Shown here piece after piece: positions 8,139-56,492 of a stretch of 64,000 bases of DNA (the first letter of the stretch is position 1; every line of letters starts with the position of its first letter). A model generated the notes under the pieces. It searched no databases. It was given only the letters and a program-made list of their open reading frames with translations, and had not been told where the DNA came from. Source of the DNA: a virus; the IMG/VR virus record IMGVR_UViG_3300029876_000390, one strand, 5' to 3'. The translations under genes and the position numbers were made by a program.

Positions 8139-9206
8139 ATGAAAACAGGAAGAAATTTGCAGGAAGTCCTGGTCGAACTGAACCGTCAGAATCAGGCCAA
8201 GCAGGATTTTATCAGTCCGGCGCAGGGAATGCGCCTCCGGGAGGATGGACAGACTTTTGAGATCAACCATCTTACGACCAGCCAGCAGGAAGTGTTTGGT
8301 ACGACCTCGCTGTTCCATCGTCAGGTGGCATCAGCACTGGGTATCCCGGCCAAATACTATGATCTCATGCAGAAAGAAAAGCCGGAACTTCTTGCCGAGA
8401 ACGTGAACAGCTGGTTTTCGGACAAGCCCAGTTCTTACATGGTCCGTTCGATGGATTACGGTGCCGGACAGGTGGCCCGTGCGCTGCTGTCGGAACGCTA
8501 TCGCCGTATCGACAACATGGAGATTGCCACATCCGTCCTGCCGCTGTTTGCAGGCAACGATCAGTACGAGGTCATGTCCTGCGAGGTGACGGAGAACCGT
8601 CTGTATCTCAAGGTGGTCAATCACCGTCTGGAGATGGAAGTCCGCAAGGGCGATATCGTCCAGGCCGGTGTGATGATCTCCAACTCCGAGGTCGGTCTGG
8701 GAGCTGTGTCCATTCAGCCGCTGGTATACCGTCTGGTCTGCACCAACGGCATGGTGGTCAATGACATGGGCGAACGCCGTCATCATGTGGGCCGGCAGGC
8801 AAAAGCAGTGGAGGACAGCTTCGCACTGTATTCGGATGAGACGATGGAAGCAGAGGACAAGGCATTCCTGCTGAAACTCCGCGATACCACGATGGCCGCC
8901 ATTGATGAGAGTCGTTTCTCTCAGGTGGTCAGCCGCCTGCAGGAATCTATGGCAGTACCAATCACCGGCAAGGTGCAGGATGTGGTGCAGCTGACTGCCC
9001 AGAGTTATGGCATCAATGCCGAGGAGCAGGAAGGTATCCTCAAGTACCTCATTGAAGGCGGCGATCTTTCTCTGTACGGTCTGTCCAATGCGGTGACCCG
9101 CGCATCGCAGGACGTTGTTTCCTATGACCGCGCCACCACACTGGAAGGCATCGGCTGGCAGGTTGCCACGATGGAGCCGCAGCAGTGGAAGCAGATCAAT
9201 CAGTGA
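8139..9206 (+). CDS. Phage/plasmid-like protein, possibly DUF932-family (family assignment tentative).
   Basis: 355-aa ORF with RBS GAGAGGAAAATTGCT before ATG 8139; length and position in the replication module resemble DUF932 proteins, but no motif could be verified by eye. Confidence 0.5.
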   Translation: MKTGRNLQEVLVELNRQNQAKQDFISPAQGMRLREDGQTFEINHLTTSQQEVFGTTSLFHRQVASALGIPAKYYDLMQKEKPELLAENVNSWFSDKPSSYMVRSMDYGAGQVARALLSERYRRIDNMEIATSVLPLFAGNDQYEVMSCEVTENRLYLKVVNHRLEMEVRKGDIVQAGVMISNSEVGLGAVSIQPLVYRLVCTNGMVVNDMGERRHHVGRQAKAVEDSFALYSDETMEAEDKAFLLKLRDTTMAAIDESRFSQVVSRLQESMAVPITGKVQDVVQLTAQSYGINAEEQEGILKYLIEGGDLSLYGLSNAVTRASQDVVSYDRATTLEGIGWQVATMEPQQWKQINQ

Positions 9207-13501: not shown

Positions 13502-14065
13502 ATGGGGAGAAAGAAAAAGAATGCCCGGTCAGCAGCACATGGACGAAAGATCCACGTTAATAAATACATCAATCAACGAGGGAAGACCAAGAAAAGGGCA
13601 GTAGTATCCTGTCAGCCGGCACCTAATAGAGTGCCGATTCAGGAGATGCCGCTTACCAGATGGCCGGTACCAAAGATACCGAAGCAGTATGAGATCTGGT
13701 TTGCAGAACTGGGGAATCATTATGGTACCTCGGTGCAGAGCGGGAACCGCCCGGTGCTGGTTATCAGCAACGATATGGCAAACCGCAATTCTCCGATTAT
13801 CACGGTGATTCCGATGAGTTCCAAGTTGAAGAAGCTGGAGCTGCCGGTACACATCCCGGTCACCGGGAGAGACTGCGAAATGCTCCGGGAAGAGGGAATG
13901 GAAGAATCCATTCTGCTGGTGGAGCAGATCACGACCATTGACAAGATGGTCCTGTGCAACCGGCTTTGCCGTGTGACCTCGGCCAAGAAAAAGCAGGAGA
14001 TCGAAGCTGCTGTTAAAAAGCAGTTTGCGATGCAGGCTTGCATGGGAAGGGAGGCGCAGGCATGA
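13502..14065 (+). CDS. PemK/MazF-like toxin (mRNA interferase fold) with an unusual basic N-terminal extension; the core domain starts at internal ATG 13646.
   Basis: WFAELGNHYGTSVQSGNRPVLVISNDMANRNSPIITVIPMSSKLKKLELPVHIPV matches the PemK/MazF signature (RP.LV.S.D..N......V.P.T). RBS GGAGGTGAG before ATG 13502. Confidence 0.6.
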   Translation: MGRKKKNARSAAHGRKIHVNKYINQRGKTKKRAVVSCQPAPNRVPIQEMPLTRWPVPKIPKQYEIWFAELGNHYGTSVQSGNRPVLVISNDMANRNSPIITVIPMSSKLKKLELPVHIPVTGRDCEMLREEGMEESILLVEQITTIDKMVLCNRLCRVTSAKKKQEIEAAVKKQFAMQACMGREAQA

Positions 14066-16491
14066 TGGACATCAAGAACATTCCGGGCAAGCTGAAAACG
14101 ACCTGCAGCTTCTGTGTCTGGAAGTTTGAAAAGCGTAACGGCCAGAAGACCAAGATGCCGTACAACCCGGCAACGGGAGAACGGGCAAAGATCAATGACC
14201 TGCGTACATTTTCGGATTTCAAGAATACCCTTGTCACCTATGCGATGGGCGGTTATGACGGTATCGGTATTGCTGTTGGCAACGGAATCGGAGCTTTTGA
14301 TATCGACCACTGTATCCGGGAGGATGGTACGCTGAACGATACGGCGGATACCGTCCTTTCCATCTTTCCTACGGCTTACGTGGAAAAATCTCCGTCCGGC
14401 AAAGGATTGCGAGGTTTCTTCTGTGTGCCGGAAGACTATGTTTACGACAAGACGGTCTACTACATCAATAACCGCAGCAAGGGGCTGGAAGTGTACATGC
14501 CCGGTGCGACGAACCGCTTCGTCACCGTAACGGGAGATGTTTACCGAACAGGTGAGATCCCGAACGATGAAACCGCAATGACGACACTGTTGGACACGCT
14601 GATGAAGCGAAACAAGCAGGTGCAGCAGACCCATTTCCAGCACCATTCGTATCTGGATGATGAGGCTGTTATCGCACACGCCAACGAAGCCAGCAACTCG
14701 GAAAAATTCAAAAAACTCTTTGCCGGTGACTGGGAAGACCTCTACGGCAGCCAGTCAGATGCGGATATGGCATTGCTGTCGATCCTGGCATTCTGGTGTG
14801 GCTGTGATGAGGAGCAGATGGACCGTATTTTTCGTACCTCAGGCCTGATGCGCGACAAGTGGGACAGAAAACAGGCTGGTTCGACCTACGGCGCGATCTC
14901 TATCCGTAACACGGTCAATACCTGTGCGGCCGTCTACATGCCGGTCAATGCGCAGGATATCGTGGATGAGGAGTTTTCCAAGCTGGATGAGGATGACTAT
15001 ATCGAATTCCAGCCGGATCTTACCAAGATCACGGTCACGCTGGAAGAAATGGCCCCGCATACAAATTCCCGGTATGGCAGAAATGAGATCGGCATGGGCA
15101 ATATGTTTGCGGATTATTTCAAGCAGATCGCCCGGTACAACAGTGAGCGTAAAGGCTGGTATGTCTATGACGGCTCTGTCTGGCGGCCGGACAAAGGCAA
15201 CCTCAAGGTATCGGAACTGGCAAAGCTGCTGGCGGACAAGCTGTATGTGTTTGCCCTGACGATTACCGAAGAGGATGCCAGAAAGCGGTTCATCGACCGT
15301 GTCCGAAAGCTGCAGCTGCGTAAGAACCGGGAAACGATGCTGAAAGATGCCATGTCCGTGTACCCGATCTCCATGCAGGCATTCGACAGGAACAAGTATT
15401 TCTTCAACTGCAAAAATGGAACGCTGGATATGCGGACATTGGAATTCAGGGAGCATCGGCCGGAGGATTATCTCACAATGGAATCCGGTATTACCTACGA
15501 CCCGGAAGCAGACTGTCCACGCTGGCACTCGTTTATCAAGGAGGTCATGTGCGGGGATGCGGATCTGGCAGACTTCCTTCAGCGTTCTTTGGGATACGCC
15601 CTGACAGGAGATACCTCGCAGGAGTGTATGTTTATCCTTTACGGTGCCACTTCCCGAAACGGCAAAGGCACTGCAATGGAAACATTCCTGAAGATTATGG
15701 GCGACTATGGAAAGACATCGAATCCGGATATGCTGGCAGCTAAATTCCGTGGTGGGAACACAGGCGGACCTTCGGAAGAAGTGGCTCGTCTGGTCGGTTC
15801 CAGATTTGTAAATATCTCTGAGCCGGAGAAGAAGATCACATTTAATGCGGCTCTCGTAAAAAGAATGACCGGCAACGATACCATCAACGCCCGATTCCTA
15901 AATGAGAACAGCTTTGATTTTGTGCCAGTGTTCAAGATTTTTATCAATACGAACTACCTGCCTAATGTCAATGATATGACCTTGTTCCAATCCGGCCGAC
16001 TGAAGATCATCCCATTTAACCGTCATTTTGAAGAGGGAGAACAAGACCAGGGGCTGAAGGGGCAGTTTGCGAAGCCGGAGAACCTGTCAGGTATTTTCAA
16101 CTGGTGTCTGGAAGGGTACAAAAAGTTCTGCCAGCGGGGTTTGGAACTTCCGCAGGCTGTCACGAAAGCAACGGAAGATTACAAGGATGATTCTGATCGG
16201 ATCGGGCAGTTCATTGAGGCGTGGCTTGAAAAAGAGGATGGGTCGGAACTTCGGACGGCGGCAGCATATCAGCTGTACACAAAGTGGTGTGAGGAGAACG
16301 GGTATTCCTCGGAGAACCAGAAGAACTTTAAAAATGCTATCGGTGTGCATTTCAAAGTGGTCCGAAAGCGTCCCAAAGGCGGTGGCGGACAGACTACGCT
16401 GATCATGGACTGCAAGTTCAAGGAAGTAGAAGCTGGAGCGGAAGACCTGACGGTACAGGACGCATATAAGCCAAAGGACAGCCTTTTGTGA
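14062..16491 (+). CDS. Phage primase-helicase (N-terminal bifunctional primase-polymerase-like domain + P4/D5-type SF3 helicase C-terminal domain).
   Basis: Walker A GATSRNGKGTAMETF and D5/P4-family C-terminal primase pattern; 810 aa; position in the replication module. Confidence 0.8.
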   Translation: MMDIKNIPGKLKTTCSFCVWKFEKRNGQKTKMPYNPATGERAKINDLRTFSDFKNTLVTYAMGGYDGIGIAVGNGIGAFDIDHCIREDGTLNDTADTVLSIFPTAYVEKSPSGKGLRGFFCVPEDYVYDKTVYYINNRSKGLEVYMPGATNRFVTVTGDVYRTGEIPNDETAMTTLLDTLMKRNKQVQQTHFQHHSYLDDEAVIAHANEASNSEKFKKLFAGDWEDLYGSQSDADMALLSILAFWCGCDEEQMDRIFRTSGLMRDKWDRKQAGSTYGAISIRNTVNTCAAVYMPVNAQDIVDEEFSKLDEDDYIEFQPDLTKITVTLEEMAPHTNSRYGRNEIGMGNMFADYFKQIARYNSERKGWYVYDGSVWRPDKGNLKVSELAKLLADKLYVFALTITEEDARKRFIDRVRKLQLRKNRETMLKDAMSVYPISMQAFDRNKYFFNCKNGTLDMRTLEFREHRPEDYLTMESGITYDPEADCPRWHSFIKEVMCGDADLADFLQRSLGYALTGDTSQECMFILYGATSRNGKGTAMETFLKIMGDYGKTSNPDMLAAKFRGGNTGGPSEEVARLVGSRFVNISEPEKKITFNAALVKRMTGNDTINARFLNENSFDFVPVFKIFINTNYLPNVNDMTLFQSGRLKIIPFNRHFEEGEQDQGLKGQFAKPENLSGIFNWCLEGYKKFCQRGLELPQAVTKATEDYKDDSDRIGQFIEAWLEKEDGSELRTAAAYQLYTKWCEENGYSSENQKNFKNAIGVHFKVVRKRPKGGGGQTTLIMDCKFKEVEAGAEDLTVQDAYKPKDSLL

Positions 16492-16763
16492 CCTTTTTTC
16501 TGATTTTGGGTGCTTTGTAGCATGTAGCTGGTTTGTAGCCGAGATTTCATAACCTTTTTTATTATTACTTTCTTTTATAGCTTTCTTATATAAAATTCAG
16601 CTACATGGTTGCTACATGCTACATGAGTTGAAAAGAAGAAAGGAAATTAAGAGAATGAACGGAAACCATGAACGGAGACAGGGTCGGCAGTTTTTGTGGG
16701 AGCCTATTTGTGGGCAAGGGCAAAGGCGGCCTGCTTTGTGATACATGAAAGAGAGGACAGAAC
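16492..16763. repeat. AT-rich intergenic region with inverted repeats of GTAGCATGTAGC; candidate replication origin / regulatory region.
   Basis: tttgtagcatgtagctggtttgtagcc at about 16515-16545 and cagctacatggttgctacatgctacatg at about 16591-16620 are reverse complements, flanking an AT-rich stretch directly downstream of the primase gene. Confidence 0.35.
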
Positions 16764-17831
16764 ATGAGTAAGATCATCACTTGTGAACAGGTCAGCAATG
16801 GTCATCCTGATAAGATCTGTGACCAGATCGCAGATGCTATTGTGACCGACATTCTTCAGCATGACAAGAACGCCCGTGTGGCAATCGAGTGTCTGCTGAA
16901 AAAGAGCCAGCTTTTTATTGCCGGCGAGGTCACCACCGATTACCGGCCAAACTACAACCAGATCGTCCACGATGTGTTCAACCGCATCGGCGCCGAAAAG
17001 CTGGGCTGGAACCTGACAGAGCTTCTCCGAATCGGCATTCTGGTGGACAAGCAGTCCCCGGATATTGCGCTGGGTGTGGACAAGGGCGGTGCCGGTGACC
17101 AGGGCATCATGTATGGCTATGCCACCAACGAGACGGCAGAGCAGATGCCCATTCCGTACATGGTCGCCACCAAGTTCCTGCAACTGCTGACGAACCATCC
17201 GTCTAAGATGTTCCGTGCAGATGCCAAGGCGCAGGTCAGCTACGATTACGACACCGGACGCATCACCACCTTCCTCTGCTCCGTGCAGCACAGCCCGGAT
17301 GTGGAGGTCAGCGACTTCCGGCACATCATCGAATCCATGATGGTGCTTGCCGCCTGCGAGTACGGACTGGACGGTGACTTTACGAAGCTGGTCAACCCGA
17401 CCGGCCGTTTCGTGCTGGGTGGTAGCTACGCCGACTGTGGTGTGACTGGCCGGAAGCTGGCATGCGATACCTACGGCGGCATCGGTCGCATGGGCGGCGG
17501 TGCTCTGAGCGGCAAAGATCCCACCAAGGTGGACCGTTCCGCTGCATACATGGCGAGGAAGATTGCCAAGGACATCGTGCAGGCGGGCTACGCAGACAAG
17601 TGCGAAGTCCAGCTGGCCTACGCCATCGGCGTGGTACAGCCAGTGGGTGTGGCAGTGGAGTGCTTCGGTACGGAGCACCAGTCCCTTGACTTCATCGAAG
17701 CCTACGTCCATGACAGCTACGACCTGACCCCGCAGGGTATCATCAAGCGGCTGGGACTGCTGGATGTAGATTACAACAAGGTCAGTGCCTACGGTCACTT
17801 CGGCAAGGCTGGTCTTCCGTGGGAGGACTGA
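16764..17831 (+). CDS. metK: S-adenosylmethionine synthetase (methionine adenosyltransferase).
   Basis: SNGHPDKICDQIADAIVTDIL (N-terminal MetK motif) and GGGALSGKDPTKVDRSAAYMARKIAK (MetK signature 2). RBS AGAGAGG before ATG. Confidence 0.85.
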   Translation: MSKIITCEQVSNGHPDKICDQIADAIVTDILQHDKNARVAIECLLKKSQLFIAGEVTTDYRPNYNQIVHDVFNRIGAEKLGWNLTELLRIGILVDKQSPDIALGVDKGGAGDQGIMYGYATNETAEQMPIPYMVATKFLQLLTNHPSKMFRADAKAQVSYDYDTGRITTFLCSVQHSPDVEVSDFRHIIESMMVLAACEYGLDGDFTKLVNPTGRFVLGGSYADCGVTGRKLACDTYGGIGRMGGGALSGKDPTKVDRSAAYMARKIAKDIVQAGYADKCEVQLAYAIGVVQPVGVAVECFGTEHQSLDFIEAYVHDSYDLTPQGIIKRLGLLDVDYNKVSAYGHFGKAGLPWED

Positions 17832-17834
17832 CCC

Positions 17835-18194
17835 ATGCCGTACAGACCAAAGACACCGTGCCATCACCCCGGCTGTCCGGAGCTGGTGGAAGCCGGCCGG
17901 CTCTACTGTGAGAAGCACCTGCCTCTCCACCCAGAAGCCACCCGGCCAGCAGCAAAGCGTGGATACAACAGACGTTGGCAGAAAGCCAGGAAGTCGTATC
18001 TCGAAGCCCATCCGCTGTGTGTGCAGTGTGCCAAGCAGGGTAAGTATGTCCGGGCAACGGTCGTGGATCACATCGTTCCGCATCGTGGTGACCAGAAACT
18101 TTTCTGGGACCAAAATAATTGGCAGGCTCTCTGCAAGAACTGTCACGATAAGAAGACGCTGACCGAAGACATCAACCCAACCTACACCTACTGA
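17835..18194 (+). CDS. HNH endonuclease.
   Basis: CxxC...H...N...H pattern: CVQCAKQGKYVRATVVDHIVPHRGDQKLFWDQNNWQALCKNCHDKKT. Confidence 0.8.
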   Translation: MPYRPKTPCHHPGCPELVEAGRLYCEKHLPLHPEATRPAAKRGYNRRWQKARKSYLEAHPLCVQCAKQGKYVRATVVDHIVPHRGDQKLFWDQNNWQALCKNCHDKKTLTEDINPTYTY

Positions 18195-18594
18195 CACCCC
18201 CGCCGGGGCCGGGGTCACTTCTCTACGGTGAAGTCACACGGAGACCGGTGGCCCCTTTTCTGTGAAAAACCGCAAAATTCATAGGCCGGGGGTCAGAGGA
18301 TTAACGGCGCAAAATGAAACAGGAAAATGTACAGGCATCGAAGCTTCGGTTCCGGTGCCATTCTTTTTCCCCGAAATGAACCAAAGTGTGTGAAACCTCT
18401 CGTAAACAGGGAGCTTTCGCACATTTTAGCTTGTTCCGGGAGGAGCGAGGGCGAGCGAAGATCGGCCGCCGCAACAACAATTCAACCAGGCGGGACGGGG
18501 CCGATTTCCACTTCGCCGCTTTTCGTATGAATTATGAGATTTTTCTAAGAAACCGCCGAAGAAACGGCGAAAAATGAGAGTGAGGTGAGGGTAG

Positions 18595-18894
18595 ATGGAA
18601 GATTACACGGCTGAGATGATCAAGGACATGGCTTTTTCGTTCTGCCCTCAGTGCGGTACAGCCATTGTACCGAATCATAAAGGCAGGCCGAGAAAGTTCT
18701 GCTCACCAGAATGCCGGTCAAGATGGAACAACACCCATCCAAAGCCGGAAAACTGGAGTACAGTGCGGTCAAAGATCTGTCCGGTGTGCGGCAGGGAGTT
18801 TTCCTACCGGCATCAGTACGGGTTGGAACGAAAATATTGCAGCCGGGCTTGTGCCAACCGGGGCAGAAAAAAGGAGGCGGACAGGAATGAGTGA
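18595..18894 (+). CDS. Zinc-ribbon protein, hypothetical.
   Basis: Four CxxC pairs (CPQCG, CSPEC, CPVCG, CSRAC); RBS GAGGTGAGGGTAG before ATG. Confidence 0.5.
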   Translation: MEDYTAEMIKDMAFSFCPQCGTAIVPNHKGRPRKFCSPECRSRWNNTHPKPENWSTVRSKICPVCGREFSYRHQYGLERKYCSRACANRGRKKEADRNE

Positions 18895-19129
18895 GAAAAT
18901 TATCGGTGTGTATCCATTGTTCAACACCGGGGGTATCTGTGTACATGCGATTGACGATGCGGAAGATAAGGTTCTGGCATCCGTGAACGGGGAAAACCTG
19001 GAATGGTGCGAGATGGCTGAACAGCCGCAGGAAGATGGAGATGAGATGGAGTCGGGCTTTTTGTTCGGCTCCTTTTTCGTGCCGTTCTCCGGGGTCGTAC
19101 GCATGTGAATCTAAAACGGGAGGGCTTAC

Positions 19130-20401
19130 ATGAAAGCGACTGCTGAACTGAAGATGCTGCCGGTGTCCGTACTCAAGCCGGCCGCATACAATCCCCGGAA
19201 AAAGCTGAAGCCGGGGGATAAAGAGTACGAGAAGATCAAGAACTCCATCACGGAGTTCGGTTTCGCAGATCCTTTGGTGGTCAATGCCGACATGACGATC
19301 ATCGGTGGTCACCAGAGACTGACCGTAGCGATGGAGCTGGGATACACCGAAGTGCCTTGTGCGGTGGTGGACATCGACAAGACCAGGGAGAAAGCCCTGA
19401 ACATCGCACTCAACAAGATCACGGGTGCATGGGATGATTCTCTGCTGGCTGACCTGCTCAAGGACATCGAAGATTCCAACTTCGACCTCGGTAAGACAGG
19501 CTTTGACCCGCCTGAGATCGAGACGCTGTTCAACAAGGTCCACAGCAAAGAGGTCAAGGAAGATGACTTCGATGTGGAATCGGAGCTGAAGCAGCCGTGC
19601 TTCTCCAAAGAGGGCGACCTCTGGCATCTGGGTAAGCACATCGTTCTGTGCGGCGATTCCACCAAGCCAGAATGCTACGATACCCTGATGGACGGCACCA
19701 AGGCCAATCTGGTTCTTTCCGATCCCCCTTATAACGTGGATGTGGAAGAAACGGCTGGCAAGATCCTGAATGACAACATGGGCGATTCGGAATTCTACCA
19801 GTTCCTGCTGGCAGCGTTCCAGCAGATGCACGGGCATCTGGCGGATGACGGCTCCATCTATATCTTCCATGCAGATACGGAAGGGCTGAACTTTAGAAAG
19901 GCATTCAAGGATGCAGGGTTCTACCTGTCCGGGTGCTGTATCTGGAAGAAGAATGCTCTGGTGCTGGGACGCAGTCCATACCAGTGGCAGCACGAGCCGT
20001 GTCTTTACGGCTGGAAGCAGAAGGGGAAACACCAGTGGTATTCCGACCGGAAGCAGACGACCATCTGGGAGTATGACCGGCCGAAGTCCAACAAGGACCA
20101 TCCGACCATGAAGCCCATCGGCCTGATGAGCTATCCGATCCGAAATTCCACCATGACCAACGGCATCGTCCTCGATCCGTTCCTTGGCAGCGGTTCTACC
20201 CTGATCGCCTGCGAAGAAACCGACCGTGTGTGCCGAGGCATCGAGCTGGACCCGAAGTTCGTGGATGTGATCGTGAAGCGTTATATCGAACACAGCGAGG
20301 GTCACTACGATGATGTGTATGTCATCCGTGACAGTCAGAAGCTGAAGTTCGAGGAAGTGGCGACCTTCGAGCCGGAAAGGGAGGTCGCTGATGGAGAATA
20401 A
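19130..20401 (+). CDS. ParB-like nuclease domain fused to DNA methyltransferase (N6-adenine / N4-cytosine class, DPPY motif).
   Basis: ParB N-domain motif IIGGHQRL; methylase motif IV LVLSDPPYNV and AdoMet-binding region LDPFLGSGST. Confidence 0.8.
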   Translation: MKATAELKMLPVSVLKPAAYNPRKKLKPGDKEYEKIKNSITEFGFADPLVVNADMTIIGGHQRLTVAMELGYTEVPCAVVDIDKTREKALNIALNKITGAWDDSLLADLLKDIEDSNFDLGKTGFDPPEIETLFNKVHSKEVKEDDFDVESELKQPCFSKEGDLWHLGKHIVLCGDSTKPECYDTLMDGTKANLVLSDPPYNVDVEETAGKILNDNMGDSEFYQFLLAAFQQMHGHLADDGSIYIFHADTEGLNFRKAFKDAGFYLSGCCIWKKNALVLGRSPYQWQHEPCLYGWKQKGKHQWYSDRKQTTIWEYDRPKSNKDHPTMKPIGLMSYPIRNSTMTNGIVLDPFLGSGSTLIACEETDRVCRGIELDPKFVDVIVKRYIEHSEGHYDDVYVIRDSQKLKFEEVATFEPEREVADGE

Positions 20402-22520
20402 ACAGCTGACCCTCGGCAGCCTCTTTGATGGCTCCGGGGGTTTTCCATTGGGCGGGCTTTTGACCGGGCAGATCACTCCGGTGTGGAGCAGTGAGATCGA
20501 GCCGTTTGCCATCCGGGTCACGACCAAGCGTCTGCCGCAGGTGAAGCATTATGGAGATGTGTCTACTATCAGCGGTGCAGACCTACCTCCTGTAGACATC
20601 ATCACTTTTGGCAGTCCCTGTCAGGATATGTCCATCGCGGGTAAGCGGGACGGTCTGGATGGTTCACGGTCCAGCCTGTTTTACGAAGCAATCCGAATCG
20701 TGAAGGAAATGAGGTGTAAGACCAATGGAGAAAAACCAAGATTTATCGTGTGGGAGAATGTGCCAGGGGCCTTCTCCTCAAACAAAGGACAGGACTTCAA
20801 AGCAGTCCTCGAAGCCGTCATCAGTGTTAAAGAACCGTCCGCCTCGGTGCCTGCGCCTGAGAAGAAAGGATGGCCTGACGCTGACTACTACGTGGGAGAC
20901 GGATGGAGCGTCGCGTATCGAGTTTTTGATGCACAATGGTGGGGCGTTCCCCAAAGAAGAAAACGTATCTACCTTGTCGCAGATTTTGCAGACCAGAGTG
21001 CCCCAAAGGTATTATTTGAGTCCGAAGGCATGTCTCGGTATTCTGCGGAGGGCTTCCGTGCGTGGCAAAGAGCTGCCGCCGTTGCTGAAAGCGGCGCTGG
21101 AGAGACAGGCTGCAGTGGAGCAGGAGGACGGCTCTGTCTGAACGATCAGGGCGGAGAGAGGATGGATGTGACGGAAGAGGTGACAGCCACCCTCCGTGCG
21201 GAGGCACATCATCCGCCGTGTGTTATGGAAGCCGCTGGTTTCTGTACCGAGCATTCCGCAAATGCCAGAAGCATTGGATACGAAGAGGAACGGTCACCGA
21301 CCCTCCGGGCTGGTGTTGTGCCTGCTGCCATCGCACTGGAAAATCATCCTGCTGACAGCCGGGTGAAGATTTCCGAGGATGGTAAGGTGCAGACACTGAC
21401 AAGTCGGTGCGGTACGGGCGGCGGTAATGTCCCGATGGTCATGGACGCTGTTGAAAATTCAGTGGAAAGCCCGGTGAAAGAAGTTGAAAACTCTCCGGCG
21501 GTCACATTGAAGATCCGTTCCGGGTGTGAAGGCGGTGGCAAGGGCGCTATCTGGCAGGAAGAAAAGTCAGCTACCCTCGGCTGCAACAACGACCAGACAC
21601 TGTTCGTTCCAAAATGCTACGGTGTCTGCTCTAAAGCCAGCCACTCCATGATGTCCGATAATCCGTATAGCGGCTTCTATGAAGCGGAGACCTCCCGGAC
21701 ACTAGACCGCAGTGGTGGAGATCCGACCTGCAATCAGGGCGGTATCTGCGTGGTAGAGCCGATCGCCTTTACCCGGAACCAGAGGGATGAAGTCCGGGAT
21801 CTGGGAGAGAAGTCAGCGGCACTTGCAGCAGAGCCGGGGATGAAGCAGCAGACCTTCGTCCTGCAGGGCAACATGATCGGCCGCAAGGATGAGAACGGTC
21901 CGCAGGGGGATGGCGTCAATGAGGATGTCTGCTTTACACTGGATGCCACTGACCGCCATGCAGTCTGCGCACCGGAGGATGTGTATGCCATGACCACCGG
22001 CTCCTATATGCAGGTGGCAAAAGAAGTCGCACCGACTCTGATGGCGCGGGATTACAAAGACCCGACCACCATCGCACCGGCACCGCATCTGAACGAGGGT
22101 GTTATGGGAACGGTGGCAACTGGGGCGCATCCCAGCGGCTTCAATGGGCAGGATGCTTTCAATGACCGTCTGGTCATCGACAACCCGGAAGCGCAGCCGA
22201 CACCTGTGACCTATACCGTCCGCCGTTTGACACCGACCGAGTGTGCCAGACTGCAAGGATTCCCGGACTGGTGGTGCAGAGATCTCGGAACGGAAAACCC
22301 GACCGAAGAAGAGCTGGCATTCTGGGCAGATGTGTTTGAAACACACCGCAAGATCGTGACCCATGCCAAGAAGCCGAAGACGGAGAAGCAGATCCGGAAA
22401 TGGCTGGCTGACCCGTATACGGATTCGGCAGAGTACCGTATCTGGGGCAACGGCATATGCTTAGCCAACGCATTTTTTGTTCTGGCCGGCATTGCATGGT
22501 GCGCAGGTCTGGAAGAATAA
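20391..22520 (+). CDS. DNA (cytosine-5)-methyltransferase with a long variable / target-recognition region.
   Basis: Motif I LFDGSGGF, motif IV GSPCQDMS, motif VI FIVWENVPG, C-terminal motifs after a roughly 350-aa variable region. Confidence 0.8.
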   Translation: MENKQLTLGSLFDGSGGFPLGGLLTGQITPVWSSEIEPFAIRVTTKRLPQVKHYGDVSTISGADLPPVDIITFGSPCQDMSIAGKRDGLDGSRSSLFYEAIRIVKEMRCKTNGEKPRFIVWENVPGAFSSNKGQDFKAVLEAVISVKEPSASVPAPEKKGWPDADYYVGDGWSVAYRVFDAQWWGVPQRRKRIYLVADFADQSAPKVLFESEGMSRYSAEGFRAWQRAAAVAESGAGETGCSGAGGRLCLNDQGGERMDVTEEVTATLRAEAHHPPCVMEAAGFCTEHSANARSIGYEEERSPTLRAGVVPAAIALENHPADSRVKISEDGKVQTLTSRCGTGGGNVPMVMDAVENSVESPVKEVENSPAVTLKIRSGCEGGGKGAIWQEEKSATLGCNNDQTLFVPKCYGVCSKASHSMMSDNPYSGFYEAETSRTLDRSGGDPTCNQGGICVVEPIAFTRNQRDEVRDLGEKSAALAAEPGMKQQTFVLQGNMIGRKDENGPQGDGVNEDVCFTLDATDRHAVCAPEDVYAMTTGSYMQVAKEVAPTLMARDYKDPTTIAPAPHLNEGVMGTVATGAHPSGFNGQDAFNDRLVIDNPEAQPTPVTYTVRRLTPTECARLQGFPDWWCRDLGTENPTEEELAFWADVFETHRKIVTHAKKPKTEKQIRKWLADPYTDSAEYRIWGNGICLANAFFVLAGIAWCAGLEE

Positions 22521-22741: not shown

Positions 22742-23833
22742 ATGTTGAAATTTGAATTGAACATAGCAGACCGTAAGACACTTGCAAATCGCATGGAGGA
22801 GCTGATGGGCATCCATCCTTACTACACCAGAGCACCGCTGTACGCATATGACATCGGCAACTACACCATCGACCGGGACGGCAATCTTCTGGTCGAGCCG
22901 GAGAATGCAGATGCCGAGCTGCTGACGACTCTGTTGAATGAGGGGTTGATCCGCGGCGGCGAGAGCATTGAGAGCACGGATGACCAGCCGGAAAACACAG
23001 AGCCGACTGAAAATTTGGCAGATGAGCCTGTGGCCGAAGAGGAGCCGGATGATACGGCAGAGGATGGTGCAACAGAGGATGAGCCGGATGCAGAGGAATC
23101 GGAAAGCGAAGAGCAGCCGGAAGCAGAAGACCAGCCGGAAGAAGTACCGCTGGATCTGGAACTTGCCTTCCCAACCAGCCAGCATAACGGAGTGAGCCTT
23201 CGCAATCTGGTCAACCTCATCTACAGCCGGGGCCGACTCATCAGCAAGGCAACGGGCGGGCACTTCCATGTGGAAACCGACCTGGTCGAAACACTGCGGG
23301 ATGACAGCTGCACCTATACGGTGGCAAACTTCATCGAGGCACTTAAGGGTTACGAAGCACAGTGTGGAACTGCGATGGAAGGTCTGGTGATCACAGAAGA
23401 AAAGGTTTCCTTCACAGGATTCCCGACGGCTTCCGACTATGATCACCTGACGGCTTTTGGTCACCTTGCCATCCTGATGAACCAGCAGGCGATCAGCCAG
23501 AAGCGCATCCAGGCAAAGGATGTCAACGATGAGAATGAGAAATACGCACTCCGCACATGGCTTCTGCGGCTGGGCATGAATGGCCCGGACTTCAAGGAAA
23601 CCCGCAAGATTCTCATGGAGAACCTTTCCGGCCATGCGGCTTTCCGCACGGATGAGGAAGCACAGAAGTTTCTTGCAAGGGAAAAGGCAAAACGGGATGC
23701 CCTGAAAGCCGCGAAACTGGCGGCACAGAACGGCGATCCTGCCACAGGGGAAACGGTCGAACAGGAAGAAAACCAGCCGACACAGCCCGACTGTGGGGCA
23801 GACACGGCGCAGATGCTGGAGGCGGGAGCGTAA
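22742..23833 (+). CDS. Hypothetical protein with an acidic linker and a C-terminal module shared with the downstream amidoligase.
   Basis: C-terminal NDENEKYALRTWLLRLGMNGPDFKETRKILMENLSGHAAFR aligns with amidoligase C-terminal TDNEKYAMRCWMLRLGFIGDEFATAREILLRNMEGNASWR. Confidence 0.55.
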   Translation: MLKFELNIADRKTLANRMEELMGIHPYYTRAPLYAYDIGNYTIDRDGNLLVEPENADAELLTTLLNEGLIRGGESIESTDDQPENTEPTENLADEPVAEEEPDDTAEDGATEDEPDAEESESEEQPEAEDQPEEVPLDLELAFPTSQHNGVSLRNLVNLIYSRGRLISKATGGHFHVETDLVETLRDDSCTYTVANFIEALKGYEAQCGTAMEGLVITEEKVSFTGFPTASDYDHLTAFGHLAILMNQQAISQKRIQAKDVNDENEKYALRTWLLRLGMNGPDFKETRKILMENLSGHAAFRTDEEAQKFLAREKAKRDALKAAKLAAQNGDPATGETVEQEENQPTQPDCGADTAQMLEAGA

Positions 23834-23989
23834 GCTCCCAAGCCCCCAATGGGGGCCGGAAAATATGCGAGACCCTCTTCCATTGTAACGATATTAACTC
23901 TGAAAATGTACATTATCAAGCGGATAAACTGCAGAAATGTACACGATCATTCTGCCTTATATTTGTCGAATATATGTTCTTTTATATCC

Positions 23990-24018
23990 TTGCTATTATC
24001 CGCACCTGACGGTAATAT
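23990..24018 (+). promoter_or_regulatory. Conserved promoter cassette copy 1 (TTGCTA-N17-TAATAT) upstream of the amidoligase.
   Basis: ccTTGCTAttatccgcacctgacggTAATATgcacataccgaaaggg; same architecture and leader as six other copies. Confidence 0.55.
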
Positions 24019-24065
24019 GCACATACCGAAAGGGAAAACAAGGAAAAAACAAAGGAGAACATACC

Positions 24066-25004
24066 ATGAACGATAAAACAAGAGAGCAGATTGAAGCCAT
24101 GAAGAACCAGACCATCGGAGTTGAGATCGAGATGAACAACATCACCAGAGAAAAAGCGGCAAGAAAGGTTGCCGAGTACTTCGGAACCAGAGCATGGAAC
24201 GCAGCCAGCGAGTACGGATATTACAGCTGGGCTTGCAAGGACCAGCAGGGCAGGGTTTGGAAATTCCAGAGGGACGTGAGCATCTACGGACCGGACGCAG
24301 AAAAATGCGAACTGGTCACCCCGATCCTCACCTACGACGACATCGAAACCTTGCAGGAAATCATCCGACTGCTCCGCAAGGCAGGCGCAAAGAGTAGCCC
24401 AAGCCGCGGATGCGGGGTCCACATCCACATCGGCAAAGGCGACCACACCGCAAAGACCATCCGCAACCTTGTGAACATCATGGCGGCGCACGAACAGCAG
24501 ATAGGCAGAGCCATCCGGATTGACGCAGGGCGCACCGGACATTATTGCCAGGTGGTCAACCACCGCTTCCTCGACCGGCTGAACCGCGAGAAGCCGACCA
24601 CCATGCGCAAGCTGGAAGACATCTGGTACGAAGGCAACGGTTCCAGCTGGGAAAACCGGAATGCCCACTACAATTCAAGCCGGTACCACATGCTGAACCT
24701 CCATGCCACCTTTACAAAAGGGACCATTGAATTCCGCCTTTTCCAATTCGCAGACCCAGCGGACGGAAAGCGCAACGGGCTGCACGCCGGTGAGATGAAA
24801 GCCTACATCCAGCTTTGCCTCGCAATGAGCCAGCTTGCCAAGATGGTCAGAACGGCAAGTCCGAAGCCCCAGCAGACCGACAACGAAAAGTACGCGATGC
24901 GGTGCTGGATGCTGAGGCTGGGATTCATCGGGGATGAATTCGCAACGGCAAGGGAGATCCTTCTGCGGAACATGGAGGGCAACGCATCCTGGCGGAACAA
25001 ATAA
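24066..25004 (+). CDS. Amidoligase_2 family enzyme (glutamine-synthetase-like amidoligase fold).
   Basis: About 310 aa; segments IGVEIEMNN, CGVHIHIGKGDHTAKTIRNLVNIMAAHEQQIGRAI and HYNSSRYHMLNLHATFTKGTIEFRLFQ are consistent with the putative amidoligase family. Strong RBS AAAGGAGAACATACC before ATG. Confidence 0.65.
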   Translation: MNDKTREQIEAMKNQTIGVEIEMNNITREKAARKVAEYFGTRAWNAASEYGYYSWACKDQQGRVWKFQRDVSIYGPDAEKCELVTPILTYDDIETLQEIIRLLRKAGAKSSPSRGCGVHIHIGKGDHTAKTIRNLVNIMAAHEQQIGRAIRIDAGRTGHYCQVVNHRFLDRLNREKPTTMRKLEDIWYEGNGSSWENRNAHYNSSRYHMLNLHATFTKGTIEFRLFQFADPADGKRNGLHAGEMKAYIQLCLAMSQLAKMVRTASPKPQQTDNEKYAMRCWMLRLGFIGDEFATAREILLRNMEGNASWRNK

Positions 25005-25071: not shown

Positions 25072-25308
25072 ATGAAAAGCACGTTAAAAAATGAAAACAC
25101 ACCGGGAGGCAGGACCTTTAAGGTGACCATCACCGAGACCTACCAGAGAACGGTGACCATTTATGAATCTGAGATGAAAGAGCCGACCGTGGAGGAAGCC
25201 CAGCGTGTGGCAGAGGACTGGTGGCGGAACAGCCAGATCGAGCTTGGGACGGAGGATTTCCAGGGAGTGGAGTTCACTGGCAGGGAGGACGGTGAGGCAG
25301 ATGCTTGA
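25072..25308 (+). CDS. Small hypothetical protein between the amidoligase and the cyclotransferases.
   Basis: 78-aa ORF, RBS GGAGGTGCAGGTTT before ATG; its stop overlaps the start of the next gene. Confidence 0.45.
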   Translation: MKSTLKNENTPGGRTFKVTITETYQRTVTIYESEMKEPTVEEAQRVAEDWWRNSQIELGTEDFQGVEFTGREDGEADA

Positions 25309-25822
25309 ACTGATCAGCCGAAGCCCATCCAGATATTACCTTGCCTACGGAAGCAACCTTGACATGGAGCGGATGGGAAAGAGATGCCCTTACGCTGTGG
25401 TGGTCGGCACGACCGAGATCATGGGCTACCGGCTCCTGTTCAAAAAGAGCAAGACCGGCTGCTATGCCACCATCGAGCAGGATGCCAATGAAAGCGTACC
25501 AGCAGTGGTCTGGAAACTCTCGGAATACGATGAGCTCCTGCTGGACCGGTACGAGGGCTGCCCAAGATACTACTACAAGAAACAGTTTCAGCTTCCGGTC
25601 TGGAACCTGAACGGGAACCGCATGAAAAAGGCAAAGCCCTGCATCGCTTATGTGATGCACGAGGACCGGCGGCTTGGCTGCCCGGATGCCGAGTATTTTG
25701 AACTGCTGCGCGGCGGATACAGCGACTGGGAATTTCCGCTGGACACACTGAAGCGTGGACTGGCAGCTAGTATCGGAAGGGCGGAAGCCATCCGGTATCT
25801 GAAGAAGCAGCAGATGATGTAA
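25301..25822 (+). CDS. Gamma-glutamyl cyclotransferase-like protein (AIG2 / GGCT fold), copy 1.
   Basis: YYLAYGSNLDMERM N-terminal motif and LDRYEGCPRYYYK core typical of the AIG2/BtrG/GGCT family. Confidence 0.7.
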   Translation: MLELISRSPSRYYLAYGSNLDMERMGKRCPYAVVVGTTEIMGYRLLFKKSKTGCYATIEQDANESVPAVVWKLSEYDELLLDRYEGCPRYYYKKQFQLPVWNLNGNRMKKAKPCIAYVMHEDRRLGCPDAEYFELLRGGYSDWEFPLDTLKRGLAASIGRAEAIRYLKKQQMM

Positions 25823-25952
25823 GAGTACACGATCAAAAGCAAAAAACATTGTGCAGTATATGATGCTTATCGGCCTTGATAAATCAGGGCAGAAGAGTGA
25901 TATATACCATACCGCCAGACAAGAGCGGAGAAAACCGAAGGGAGAGATTCAA

Positions 25953-26432
25953 ATGAAGAACAAGAAATATTACATCGCCTACGGCAGCAACCTGTCGGTG
26001 GAGCAGATGGCATACCGGTGTCCGGATGCAAAAATTGCAGGACAGGCGGTGCTTGCAGGCTGGGAGCTTTTGTTCCGCGGCTGCGCCACCATCGCACCGA
26101 ACCCGAAGAAGAACACGCCGGTTCTGGTGTGGGAGATCTCGGAAAGGGATGAAGGAAACCTCGACCTCTATGAGGGCTACCCGAACTACTACCGCAAGGA
26201 AGACCTGAACATCGAACTGCTCCGGGAAGGAGCGGAACCGGAGATGGTGACCGCAATGGTCTACATCATGGAGAACGACTTCGGACACCGCGCACCGAGC
26301 CGGTATTACTACAAAGTCCTGCATGACGGCTACAAGGCATTCCACTTCCCGATGCACATCCTCGAAGGTGCGCTGAAGGAATGCATGGATAAGGATGCCG
26401 CCCAGCGGATGATCGAGGAGGTGCAGGCATGA
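25953..26432 (+). CDS. Gamma-glutamyl cyclotransferase-like protein (AIG2 / GGCT fold), copy 2 (paralog).
   Basis: YYIAYGSNLSVEQM and LDLYEGYPNYYRK motifs; paralogous to 25301-25822. Confidence 0.7.
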   Translation: MKNKKYYIAYGSNLSVEQMAYRCPDAKIAGQAVLAGWELLFRGCATIAPNPKKNTPVLVWEISERDEGNLDLYEGYPNYYRKEDLNIELLREGAEPEMVTAMVYIMENDFGHRAPSRYYYKVLHDGYKAFHFPMHILEGALKECMDKDAAQRMIEEVQA

Positions 26433-28364: not shown

Positions 28365-28444
28365 GAAAACGGGGAGGGAAAACTCCCCGGATAAACACAT
28401 AAATCCTCCAGATCAGGGGGCAGATGATCGTGTACTTTAGCCGC

Positions 28445-28473
28445 TTGATAGTGTCCGGCAGTGACGGTAATAT
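28445..28473 (+). promoter_or_regulatory. Conserved promoter cassette copy 3, with the upstream GATCGTGTACTTTAGCCGC box.
   Basis: gatcgtgtactttagccgcTTGATAgtgtccggcagtgacggTAATATacagctacc. Confidence 0.55.
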
Positions 28474-28503
28474 ACAGCTACCAAAACGAAAGGGGCAAAG
28501 AAC

Positions 28504-28710
28504 ATGGAACGCTACACTTACGAGATCACCTTTACACGGCTGGATGGACAGCCGGATGAAATCCAGCAGCACACCAGCGAGGAGCTGGCAAGAGAATGCT
28601 TCCGGCCTTTCGATGAGCCGGACAGTGCAGAGATGTACAGCAAAATCGAACTTAGCCGCCACGACTGGGAGGCAGCCACGGATGAGATTCTGGAAACGAT
28701 GACATTCTGA
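28504..28710 (+). CDS. Small hypothetical protein (68 aa).
   Basis: RBS AAAGGGGCAAAGAAC before ATG. Confidence 0.5.
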   Translation: MERYTYEITFTRLDGQPDEIQQHTSEELARECFRPFDEPDSAEMYSKIELSRHDWEAATDEILETMTF

Positions 28711-28725
28711 GAGGAGAACAAAAAC

Positions 28726-28986
28726 ATGACTTACACAAAAATCAACCTTTACCTTGCGAACGGAATCCCAGAGGCACTCAGCAACCTCTGGTACGGAAGC
28801 GACAGCGCGGTGGTCGAGATCAGGGATGCCGTTGAGGATGCGAAGAACGGCAAGGACCTTCTGAACCGCATCCAGAAGATGAAGCTCCTGCGGAAATTCA
28901 CCCTCGACAGGGAGAACGAAAGTCGCATCCGCTTCAAGGGAACGGACTGCTGGGGCAACGTAAGCTACCTCGAAATCATTCGCTAA
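28726..28986 (+). CDS. Small hypothetical protein (86 aa), co-transcribed with the upstream ORF.
   Basis: RBS GAGGAGAACAAAAAC before ATG; followed by the terminator GGCTGG-aaatga-CCAGCC-TTTT (29010-29031). Confidence 0.5.
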   Translation: MTYTKINLYLANGIPEALSNLWYGSDSAVVEIRDAVEDAKNGKDLLNRIQKMKLLRKFTLDRENESRIRFKGTDCWGNVSYLEIIR

Positions 28987-29115
28987 AGGCAAGGCCGACA
29001 GGCGCAAGGGGCTGGAAATGACCAGCCTTTTGCTCGTGTCTGTCTTCCGAAAGCTGGCATGAAAAGCACATAAATATGACAATTACAGGATTGAATGATC
29101 GTGTAGTTTAGCCGC

Positions 29116-29144
29116 TTGATAGTACTCCGGGGTGACGGTAATAT
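29116..29144 (+). promoter_or_regulatory. Conserved promoter cassette copy 4.
   Basis: gatcgtgtagtttagccgcTTGATAgtactccggggtgacggTAATATacagtcaccgaaagggg. Confidence 0.55.
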
Positions 29145-29188
29145 ACAGTCACCGAAAGGGGAAAACAACAAAAACGGAGGATACGACA

Positions 29189-29638
29189 ATGACGAAGAAC
29201 GAAGACCGCATCAATAAACTTTTCAAGGAACTGGTACCGGATACGGGCAAGGCAGACAGCCTCGCAGGGGAGCTGGTAAGGGCAATGAGCCGCATCGGAT
29301 ACCGCTTTTACAACGACGGCGACCAGCTGGGCATCGGCTACGGCAAGGAAACCTGCAACCCTGCAGGGCGGTTCCTTGGAGCCAAGGGCAACGACAAAAT
29401 CGCAAAGCTGACTGCAGATGCCTGGGCAGTCTACAGTGAGGAAGCCTACGAAAAGGTTCTGGACATCCTTTGCGGAGCGGTTGCCGACTATGTTGAGCAG
29501 AACCCAGACCTTAGAAACCAGCCGACCGAAGATATGTGGGACTTCAAGGATGAGGAAGAAGACCAGGATGACAGCTGGGACGAGGAAGAAGATGACTGGG
29601 ACGAAGAGGAAGATTACGAGGACGAAGAAAACTACTAA
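29189..29638 (+). CDS. Hypothetical protein with extremely acidic C-terminal tail (DEEEDQDDSWDEEEDDWDEEEDYEDEENY); candidate DNA-mimic / anti-restriction protein.
   Basis: RBS AAAACGGAGGATACGACA before ATG; 150 aa; the last 30 residues are about 80% Asp/Glu. Confidence 0.55.
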   Translation: MTKNEDRINKLFKELVPDTGKADSLAGELVRAMSRIGYRFYNDGDQLGIGYGKETCNPAGRFLGAKGNDKIAKLTADAWAVYSEEAYEKVLDILCGAVADYVEQNPDLRNQPTEDMWDFKDEEEDQDDSWDEEEDDWDEEEDYEDEENY

Positions 29639-29734
29639 GCCAGAGAAACAAATGGGGCTTGCCGGAAACGGCGGCCCTTTTCTTCTGCTGTAATACGCAC
29701 AGTTCCGGGTGGCTATCTTTGTGTAGTATAGCCG

Positions 29735-29763
29735 CTTGATAGTGTGTGACATAGACGGTAATA
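29735..29763 (+). promoter_or_regulatory. Conserved promoter cassette copy 5.
   Basis: gtgtagtatagccgcTTGATAgtgtgtgacatagacggTAATATgcacataccgaaacgg. Confidence 0.55.
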
Positions 29764-29808
29764 TGCACATACCGAAACGGAAAACCAAGAAAAACGGAGG
29801 AAACCACC

Positions 29809-30000
29809 ATGAAGAAGAACATTACCAAGGAAGAAGAAAAATCCCTGCTGGAGATCGCCAAGCGCCTGATGGCAGCGGTAGACAGTCGGGGCGACCTCGA
29901 AGCCCGCGACAATGACAGCGAGGACTTCATTGAGGTTCCGGTCTGGGGCATCCAGAAAGCAATGGAGGAAGCCTACCTGCTGGGACGGATGAACAGATAA
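29809..30000 (+). CDS. Small hypothetical protein (63 aa).
   Basis: RBS AAAACGGAGGAAACCACC before ATG. Confidence 0.5.
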   Translation: MKKNITKEEEKSLLEIAKRLMAAVDSRGDLEARDNDSEDFIEVPVWGIQKAMEEAYLLGRMNR

Positions 30001-30123
30001 ACCGACAGCCCCCGACACAGCCCCACACAGGGGCTTGTGCCACGGGTGGCAAAACAATCCGAAGGAACCGACAACGCCCCAGACAGGGGCAGATGTGGCG
30101 GCGTGGAGGAAGGGAAAGCACAC

Positions 30124-30330: not shown

Positions 30331-30379
30331 CGTACATTCTGCCTGGTATTCCGGGCAGAAGATCGTGTACTTTAGCCGC

Positions 30380-30408
30380 TTGCTATCCTTTGCACCTGAC
30401 GGTAATAT
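30380..30408 (+). promoter_or_regulatory. Conserved promoter cassette copy 6.
   Basis: gatcgtgtactttagccgcTTGCTAtcctttgcacctgacggTAATATgcacataccgaaaggg (the spacer is identical to copy 1). Confidence 0.55.
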
Positions 30409-30465
30409 GCACATACCGAAAGGGGGAGGCCCCAAGGGAAAAACGAAAACACGGAGGATTTTATC

Positions 30466-56483: not shown

Positions 56484-56492
56484 TTTTGGGAA

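Follow-up and report, generated by a model that had tools for sequence, protein, structure and literature searches.

This work concerns a block of phage genes at positions 16764-22520 of a 64,000-nt stretch of virus DNA (IMG/VR record IMGVR_UViG_3300029876_000390; hereafter the window, meaning the whole stretch). In this block, a gene for the S-adenosylmethionine (SAM) synthetase MetK stands upstream of an HNH endonuclease gene and of two DNA methyltransferase (MTase) genes. We regard it as probable that these genes form the module for DNA modification in a temperate Ca. Heliusvirales (Phi1207.3-like) phage, carried as a prophage by a Lachnospiraceae host, and that its MetK provides the SAM with which the phage methylates its own DNA. 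The MetK-MTase block is real but known, and it is ordinary for its lineage. What is possibly new is the cassette structure of the long C5-cytosine MTase (C5-MTase), together with the clade-level properties of the short MetK.

All genes of the block lie on the + strand. MetK (355 aa; 16764-17831) is a short-form SAM synthetase that carries the three Pfam domains of the family (S-AdoMet_synt_N, 8e-26; _M, 1e-24; _C, 2e-55; PF00438, PF02772 and PF02773, all above gathering scores). It also matches the NCBIfam equivalog TIGR01034 at 393.4 bits, against a cut-off of 309.4, and the phage profile phrog_1569 at 7e-135 over positions 2-345 of 346. Both GHPDKICDQI and GGGALSGKDPTKVDRSAAY are present in its translation. 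The HNH endonuclease gene (119 aa; 17835-18194; PF01844, 8e-10; phrog_144, 3e-37) follows 3 nt after the MetK stop codon. The first MTase (423 aa; 19130-20401) is a fusion of ParB_N (aa 6-89, 1e-8) with a class-beta N6A/N4C DNA MTase domain (N6_N4_Mtase, PF01555, aa 193-382, 4e-28). This ParB-MTase matches phrog_498 at 1e-186 and has the DPPY motif, as SDPPYN in the translation; the nearest NCBIfam families are adenine MTases (YhdJ-like, CcrM), all far below their cut-offs. Its stop codon is overlapped, by 11 nt, by the open reading frame (ORF) of the C5-MTase (709 aa; 20391-22520; PF00145, 1e-41; TIGR00675, 143 bits, cut-off 101), whose translation contains GSPCQ and WENVPG. By these domain and family matches, each of the four proteins is an intact representative of its family.

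The original prediction, made from the letters of the DNA and a list of its ORFs, had named these four genes at the same positions, and the ORF list, Pfam and NCBIfam bear it out. It had overlooked two small ORFs between the HNH and ParB-MTase genes. One encodes a 99-aa protein with two CxxC...CxxC zinc ribbons (18595-18894, +; weak, sub-cut-off Pfam zinc-ribbon matches; phrog_1271 and phrog_2308 at ~1e-17), homologues of which occupy the same position in related loci. The other, of 73 aa (18887-19108, +), was read from its translation and has no Pfam match. A promoter and terminator scan of 13-32 kb performed no better than on shuffles, and the operon structure therefore rests only on the 3-nt gap and the 11-nt overlap. 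ARAGORN found no tRNA.

The genome in the window is that of a temperate, siphovirus-type phage. As read from ORF and Pfam scans, its gene order begins with helix-turn-helix and sigma-like regulators and continues through a DUF2800 nuclease, an Enc34-type single-stranded DNA-binding protein, a family A DNA polymerase, an SNF2 helicase, a MazF-like protein and a D5/NrS-1 primase to the MetK/MTase block. There follow two amidoligase-like and two gamma-glutamyl-cyclotransferase (GGCT) genes, DUF4314 and DUF3846, and then terS, TerL, portal, ClpP protease, capsid, tape measure and lysin genes, leading to three large serine recombinases. MetK is inside the phage, between its replication and packaging genes and not at a boundary. 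With the primase upstream and terS onward downstream, the possibility that MetK might be a host gene beyond the prophage edge, which had been named as a way for the original prediction to fail, is set aside.

The same arrangement is found well beyond the window. A near-identical prophage segment is present in Clostridium fessum SNUG30386, in which the proteins from MazF/primase through the C5-MTase are 97-100% identical to those of the window. At the nucleotide level, megablast of the region against phage records returned one 85%-identical fecal contig and otherwise short matches only. Streptococcus prophages and gut Clostridia phages alike have the order MetK-HNH-(small ORFs)-ParB-MTase-C5-MTase: it is seen in Phi1207.3 (PMC4260502), in S. 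pyogenes phi29862, in the Evtepia phage NatCom_11697, in 80 IMG/VR loci, and in prophages of C. fessum and S. cristatus. More broadly, the window conforms to a conserved order in which the primase is followed by MetK-HNH-ParB/MTase-C5-MTase and then by terS-TerL-portal-ClpP-capsid.

The short-form MetK and its leader

The window MetK is 45% identical to that of E. coli and, at 355 versus 384 aa, is 29 aa shorter. Four separate deletions account for the difference: one removes 5 aa following the gating loop, two are of 4 and 3 aa, and one takes away the C-terminal 14 aa. All substrate and metal motifs align to the E. coli enzyme and are kept, including GHPDK, E42, the gating loop KQSPDI, GAGDQG, DAK, TGRK and SGKDP.KVDRS. 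On this alignment, the window MetK looks catalytically intact, in agreement with the original view that it is complete despite being short.

The four deletions are common, exactly, to the Streptococcus and Evtepia phage MetKs. In a scan that took one genome per species, short-type copies were 53-98% identical to the window MetK, whereas ordinary cellular MetKs, which have 375-400 aa, were 43-50% identical to it. The cellular enzymes of Lachnospiraceae, Oscillospiraceae, Ruminococcus and Acutalibacteraceae were no closer than that of Bacillus, with the Lachnospiraceae, Oscillospiraceae and Ruminococcus copies at 43-48%. In a neighbor-joining tree without bootstrap, the short MetKs form a single clade on a long branch. 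Because the deletions are shared and identities of 53-98% stand against at most 50%, MetK is not a recent capture from the host; the recent capture that the original prediction had proposed to look for thus finds no support in the identity scan or in the phylogeny. We give next to no credence to the reading in which MetK is a recently captured host gene, or one that lies outside the prophage, given that phage replication and packaging genes flank it on either side.

What that reading has in its favor is that a cellular source or sink does exist. Oribacterium parvum ACB1, a member of the Lachnospiraceae, has a 352-aa short MetK (locus L091, 5787-7056; NZ_KE148312.1) that is 59% identical to the window MetK and that falls inside the short clade in the neighbor-joining tree. 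The gene stands among the core chromosomal genes AsnA, TrkH/TrkA, TIM, PGK and GAPDH, with a SAM-I riboswitch upstream. This setting suggests that the short form can act as a housekeeping enzyme. Either the phage MetK derives from this lineage, or in O. parvum a phage gene took the place of the host metK.

The original prediction had also called phage-encoded MetK uncommon. Across all phages this is correct, since MetK homologues occur in 139 of 50,697 phage records, and Streptococcus phages make up 90 of the 139. Within the lineage it is not: MetK (K00789) was reported in 58.9% of Ca. Heliusvirales genomes, and C5-MTase (K00558) in 67% (Nat Commun 2024, PMC11283538), and IMG/VR holds at least 531 MetK-encoding stretches. 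The 90%-identity cluster to which the window MetK belongs contains 5,635 sequences. In the GenBank record of NatCom_11697 (PV036427.1; locus L001, 8998-10044), the MetK gene is annotated as a 'peptidase'.

MetK is preceded by an intergenic leader (16492-16763, +) and, upstream of it, by the gene for the D5/NrS-1-type primase-helicase (817 aa; 14038-16491, +; D5_N, 9e-31; NrS1-1_pol-like_HBD, 3e-29; Pox_D5, 9e-10). This gene is the end of the replication module and has the same position in Phi1207.3 and phi29862. No Rfam family reached its gathering score anywhere in the window, and none was found at E<=1 in 16300-19200. By comparison, the same type of Rfam search placed a SAM-I riboswitch directly upstream of six of seven cellular metK controls. 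By this measure, the window MetK is outside S-box feedback control. The phage copy shares its family and catalytic motifs with the Firmicutes cellular MetKs that are under S-box (SAM-I) control, and differs from them in length, in its four deletions and in having no riboswitch.

The leader holds all four GCTACATG octamers of the 64-kb window, one of them inverted, within 105 nt (16521-16625). We considered this cluster as a conserved operator and rejected it, since it travels with one primase variant only. The octamers are confined to relatives with the same primase variant, and contigs whose MetK is 98-99% identical but whose primase differs do not have them. Compared across these contigs, the distribution of the octamers shows mosaic recombination at the primase/MetK junction.

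Linkage to methyltransferases and the role of MetK

Linkage was assessed in 80 IMG/VR loci of the short MetK clade, of which the 61 with at least 6 kb of downstream sequence were counted; dereplication at 90% MetK identity left 25 loci. The HNH gene comes after MetK in 50 of the 61, at a median gap of 4 nt, and in 17 of the 25 dereplicated loci. A ParB-MTase is found downstream of MetK in 56 of the 61 (median distance 1.5 kb; 20 of 25 after dereplication), and a C5-MTase in 38 (9 of 25). The constant MTase partner of MetK is therefore the ParB fusion, and not the C5-MTase. Thus, the picture of a MetK set beside two MTases, on which the original prediction was built, is true of the window, but the C5-MTase is the least constant of the partners.

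No restriction endonuclease adjoins either MTase. Their neighbors are the primase, MetK, the HNH gene (phrog_144), the zinc-ribbon and small ORFs, and the amidoligases. The ParB-MTase and the C5-MTase are therefore orphans. A Type II restriction-modification (R-M) system was considered and rejected, because there is no endonuclease partner and because the HNH gene is constant whichever MTases are present. Nor does the HNH protein hold up as an R-M partner in view of its constancy in the lineage, where it is present even in NatCom_991, a phage without a full MetK. We take it to be the constant nuclease of the lineage, packaging-associated rather than a partner in restriction.

The identity of the genes, their intactness, their conserved order, the orphan state of the MTases and the missing riboswitch are the observed basis on which a mechanism can be proposed. 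During lytic growth, the phage MetK would make SAM from host methionine and ATP while escaping host S-box feedback. In effect, it would keep SAM from limiting the two orphan MTases when many replicating genome copies are present. Phage DNA would then be methylated before packaging by the ParB-fused amino-MTase, probably to N6-methyladenine (m6A), and by the C5-MTase, whose long, cassette-built variable region probably recognizes several different sequences. Progeny DNA would enter the next host already protected against many restriction systems. We hold it to be somewhat better than an even prospect that MetK supplies SAM for phage self-methylation by two MTases in this way, and that the outcome is anti-restriction.

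Several points weigh against this account. Five of the 25 dereplicated MetK loci have no MTase within 6-8 kb downstream, and ~41% of Heliusvirales genomes are without MetK (PMC11283538). NatCom_991, which is an Acutalibacteraceae phage, has the HNH gene, the ParB-MTase and a 729-aa C5-MTase but no full MetK. MetK is therefore an accessory insertion in a constant HNH-MTase block and, as far as gene content tells, is dispensable for that block. The one functional study of a phage MetK, on a prophage of group B Streptococcus (S. agalactiae), describes effects on aggregation and biofilm in the lysogen and not anti-restriction (PMC8223999).

Two further ORFs of NatCom_991 (locus L003) belong to the same block. 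Between the HNH and ParB-MTase genes lies a 275-aa ORF (6109-6936) that matches the MetK N domain only (PF00438, 3e-11); it may be a MetK that has decayed or taken on another function. A phosphoadenosine phosphosulfate (PAPS)-reductase-like ORF (8237-8992) separates the ParB-MTase gene from that of the 729-aa C5-MTase.

The main rival to SAM supply for phage DNA methylation is lysogenic conversion, in which the prophage MetK would raise or rewire SAM-dependent physiology of the host, such as that of the cell wall, polyamines, autoinducer 2 or biofilm, and its proximity to MTases would be historical. This is the sole role with any experimental backing. In S. agalactiae 12/111phiA, deletion and complementation of the prophage metK alters aggregation and biofilm, with changes in flocculation, chain length and glycocalyx (PMC8223999). 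Phage MetK is thus not wholly uncharacterized in function, as the original prediction had it, although that description remains partly true otherwise. In the same study, most complemented strains failed to restore the phenotypes, and secondary mutations were found (PMC8223999). The window phage is temperate, has three serine recombinases and is integrated in C. fessum, and MetK is accessory in its lineage, all of which would suit a gene that works in the lysogen. Against it, MetK sits in the replication-to-packaging operon, with only 3-4 nt between it and the constant HNH gene, rather than at the prophage end where morons are usual, and a ParB-MTase accompanies it in 56 of 61 loci. We consider conversion unlikely.

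A role in counter-defense, in which MetK would offset a SAM shortage brought about by SAM-lyase competitor phages or by host responses, or would feed some use of SAM other than DNA methylation, seems to us more improbable still. The precedent is phage T3. The original prediction had T3 hydrolyzing SAM; its SAMase is in fact a lyase, which also inhibits host MetK (PMC12707154). The T3 enzyme and the window MetK have unrelated folds, and both are phage genes that act on the host SAM pool in the contest over methylation-based defense. They would act in opposite directions: T3 destroys SAM and blocks host MetK, which keeps it unmethylated and disables Type I R-M and BREX, whereas the window phage is predicted to be a SAM maker with MTases of its own. 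In favor of such a role, the phage MetK is riboswitch-free, and some relatives have other SAM-related genes by their MTases; one of these, under hit H52, bears the annotation 'radical SAM domain protein'. Against this, the window ORFs that were scanned include no SAM lyase or radical-SAM gene, and a literature search found no SAM-depleting defense that is countered by a phage MetK.

The variable region of the C5-methyltransferase

The 709-aa C5-MTase has the motifs of its family in order. Its motifs I (FxGxGG), IV (PCQ, Cys77), VI (ENV), VIII (QRRKR) and IX align to those of M.HhaI; in this alignment, motifs I-VI fall within aa 8-139, motif VIII within aa 174-198 and motif IX within aa 609-628; the GNG of motif X is at aa 686-688 of the translation. 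The variable region between motifs VIII and IX is expanded to 410 aa (aa 199-608; 20985-22214, +), as compared with 98 aa in M.HhaI. Its description draws on this alignment, on a profile of a recurring unit, and on insertions and deletions of whole cassettes.

By eye, nine '..(S/T/A)xTL..' segments can be seen in this region, at a spacing of 23-79 aa. Self-BLASTP of the protein found no internal repeats, because the units are too divergent for it; only a hidden Markov model (HMM) trained on the family detects them. This HMM was seeded with the segments found by eye and taken through four rounds of rebuilding, each of which excluded the window protein and drew on 150 representatives of the family taken from 50%-identity clusters. 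The diversity of the family came from a search of 50% representatives and a profile search; the first protein searches had given near-identical proteins only. The HMM finds 7 units in the window C5-MTase and 388 in the family, against 0 in 302 reversed or shuffled controls. The units are ~35 aa long with an invariant 'TL' core, so that the window enzyme has 7-9 of them (7 by the HMM, 9 by eye), and every HMM unit falls in the interval from motif VIII to motif IX. In 71 full-length relatives, the variable region measures 128-707 aa, and each further detected unit adds ~37 aa to it (r = 0.60). The relatives reach 968 aa in length.

The units also behave as separable pieces. The seven units of the window are mutually only 22% identical, but copies of each type with at least 60% identity turn up in 7-63 of the 141 other unit-bearing representatives. 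Cassettes of 30-42 aa are cleanly present or absent among proteins that are otherwise >90% identical. Thus, a 39-aa unit, QTFVAQPE..ATRSDQM, is the difference between the 709/710-aa and the 749-752-aa forms of the enzyme, and a 32-aa unit occurs in the 739-, 779- and 795-aa forms.

Enzymes of this length are common among the relatives of the window phage. The 90%-identity cluster of the 752-aa variant contains 4,296 sequences. With the long C5-MTase as query, matches in 22 phage records extend over 80% or more of its length, the near-full-length ones among those listed being 47-74% identical. Long forms are usual in gut Heliusvirales, and the length is therefore a lineage trait and not a peculiarity of the window. 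Several of the long C5-MTases in NatCom records are annotated as 'hypothetical protein'. In an 802-aa close relative, P0001, two stretches of ~47 aa are exactly duplicated, the first spanning motif IV and the second within the variable region; the cause may be either a genuine tandem duplication or an error of assembly.

It is a reasonable but unproven inference that the variable region consists of candidate target-recognition cassettes and that the enzyme is multispecific and cassette-built. A tandem-module architecture has reportedly been described by Trautner, Noyer-Weidner and colleagues for the multispecific C5-MTases of Bacillus phages. M.SPRI, M.Rho11sI, M.H2I and M.Phi3TI are, like the window enzyme, orphan phage MTases with a conserved core, an enlarged VIII-IX region and tandem T-[LIV] modules. 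They differ in being 439-503 aa long, as compared with 709 aa and 7-9 units in the window, and unit similarity between the two groups is sub-threshold.

The alternative is that the region is not an array of independent target-recognition domains (TRDs) at all but one large or flexible DNA-binding or regulatory region, or mostly dead pseudo-domains, which would leave the enzyme with one or two specificities. We give this alternative a little under an even chance. Several results speak for it and weigh against a cassette array. On M.SPRI, M.Rho11sI and M.H2I, the unit HMM finds 3-4 positions each at T-[LIV] cores, plausibly placed, but only at sub-threshold scores of -2 to +5 bits. Searched against PDB sequences, the unit profile matched no C5-MTase and gave chance matches only (actinohivin, phenylalanine dehydrogenase), the profile having 31 positions and low power, and it shows no significant similarity to the solved TRDs of M.HhaI or M.HaeIII. 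When the C5-MTase was modeled with AlphaFold2 from an alignment of 87 sequences, the mean predicted local distance difference test (pLDDT) score was 42, and the model is uninformative at residues 212-630, where pLDDT is 21-28. In addition, inactive pseudo-domains were reportedly described in Bacillus phage enzymes by Lange et al. in 1991. A single flexible or decayed region is harder to square with units that keep an invariant T-L core and are confined to the interval between motifs VIII and IX, where TRDs lie. The same is true of unit types that are so dissimilar within one protein and yet recur in distant representatives, and of the clean gain and loss of single cassettes in nearly identical proteins.

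A bolder form of the cassette reading can be stated, although we doubt it. The 709-aa enzyme and its ~970-aa relatives might be 'hyper-multispecific', with each cassette an independent target-recognition module, and might thereby recognize more motifs than any characterized enzyme; M.BssHII has five. Gut Heliusvirales would then shuffle cassettes to track the restriction repertoires of their hosts, and the riboswitch-free MetK would pay the SAM bill.

Published relatives and surrounding genes

Much of the block has been described before. In the S. pyogenes prophage Phi1207.3 (2014, PMC4260502), orf23 encodes a D5 primase, orf29 a SAM synthetase of 353 aa, orf30 an HNH protein of 121 aa, orf32 a ParB-like protein with DNA methylase of 410 aa, and orf33 a C5 methylase; terS, TerL and portal genes follow, and the phage has three serine recombinases. 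Its authors suggested in 2014 that MetK serves as a methyl-donor supply (PMC4260502). Order and sizes in the window match this and the other Streptococcus prophages, Phi10394.4, phi29862 and the Javan phages, in which the block also has a small ORF between the HNH and ParB-MTase genes and passes through DUF4314 to terS, TerL, portal, ClpP and capsid. Identities to the window are 56-58% for MetK, 68% for the ParB-MTase and 74-77% for TerL. The C5-MTases differ more: those of Streptococcus have 388-426 aa, short variable regions and ~30% identity to the 709-aa window enzyme. The window phage, whose host is a gut Lachnospiraceae, also has two amidoligase-like genes and two GGCT genes in addition.

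With the Ca. Heliusvirales gut phages (NatCom genomes), the window shares the same backbone; it is a member of the group with no essential difference. Long C5-MTases of Heliusvirales match over ~1.8-2.3 kb (roughly 600-765 aa) at 47-61% identity, and amidoligase and GGCT genes are typical of these phages. The published work on the group treats MetK and C5-MTase as auxiliary metabolic genes; the MetK clade, the absence of a riboswitch and the cassettes are outside its analysis. According to a 2021 survey, viral metK is one of the dominant auxiliary genes for organosulfur metabolism in human-associated viromes; its binding motifs are conserved, it is under purifying selection, and in S. suis phages it occurs together with dcm. 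Transcripts of viral metK have been detected in Lake Mendota. As for the ParB-MTase, fusions of ParB with N6/N4 MTases are enriched in phages and prophages according to a 2025 survey, which attributes no role to them (PMC12704722). The window protein has the same architecture as these phage fusions of a ParB-CTPase fold to an N6_N4 MTase, with ParB_N followed by PF01555 (PMC12704722).

The block is bordered by further accessory genes. Directly after the C5-MTase comes an amidoligase-like ORF with an acidic low-complexity center (22742-23833, +), followed by an Amidoligase_2 ORF (23937-25004, +; 1e-55) and two AIG2/GGCT-like ORFs (25205-25822 and 25851-26432, +). NatCom_991, NatCom_11697 and many relatives in IMG/VR have an amidoligase and GGCT pair at the corresponding position. 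On the other side, a MazF/PemK-like toxin ORF (13502-14065, +; PF02452, 1e-20) lies directly upstream of the primase gene and overlaps its start. Its homologues are found upstream of MetK in most related loci; an antitoxin was not identified. The three large serine recombinases lie at 52072-56483 and 60557-62431, as in Phi1207.3. Between them, in the region of 57127-58278, are an AAA_21 (AbiEii-like) ATPase and an AAA_25 protein, and GC content is 0.42-0.43 at 56000-60000. The recombinase region with its lowered GC may hold the prophage end together with cargo or a neighboring element.

Downstream of the block, the window contains five exact copies of TAGCCGCTTGMTA-N12-16-GACGGTAATAT, where none would be expected by chance, at 28438-30890 (+) and also at 28146 and 24008. 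The TAGCCGCTTGMTA/GACGGTAATAT pairs are within six copies of a ~83-nt repeat spaced 317-671 nt apart. Both copies that were inspected (29134-29200 and 29754-29820) have GGAGGA, resembling a ribosome-binding site, and an ATG downstream. A seventh GACGGTAATAT stands just upstream of the likely true start of an amidoligase gene. The repeat looks like a phage-specific class of promoter, perhaps read by the sigma-like protein of the phage itself (1234-2055). None is present upstream of MetK or of the methyltransferases in the window.

Overall, few gene sets in human gut metagenomes are as abundant as the block formed by MetK, HNH and the two methyltransferases. Should its C5-MTase indeed be built of recognition cassettes, natural variants that differ by a single cassette would offer a ready-made dissection of target recognition, and would also be a source of new specificities for 5-methylcytosine.

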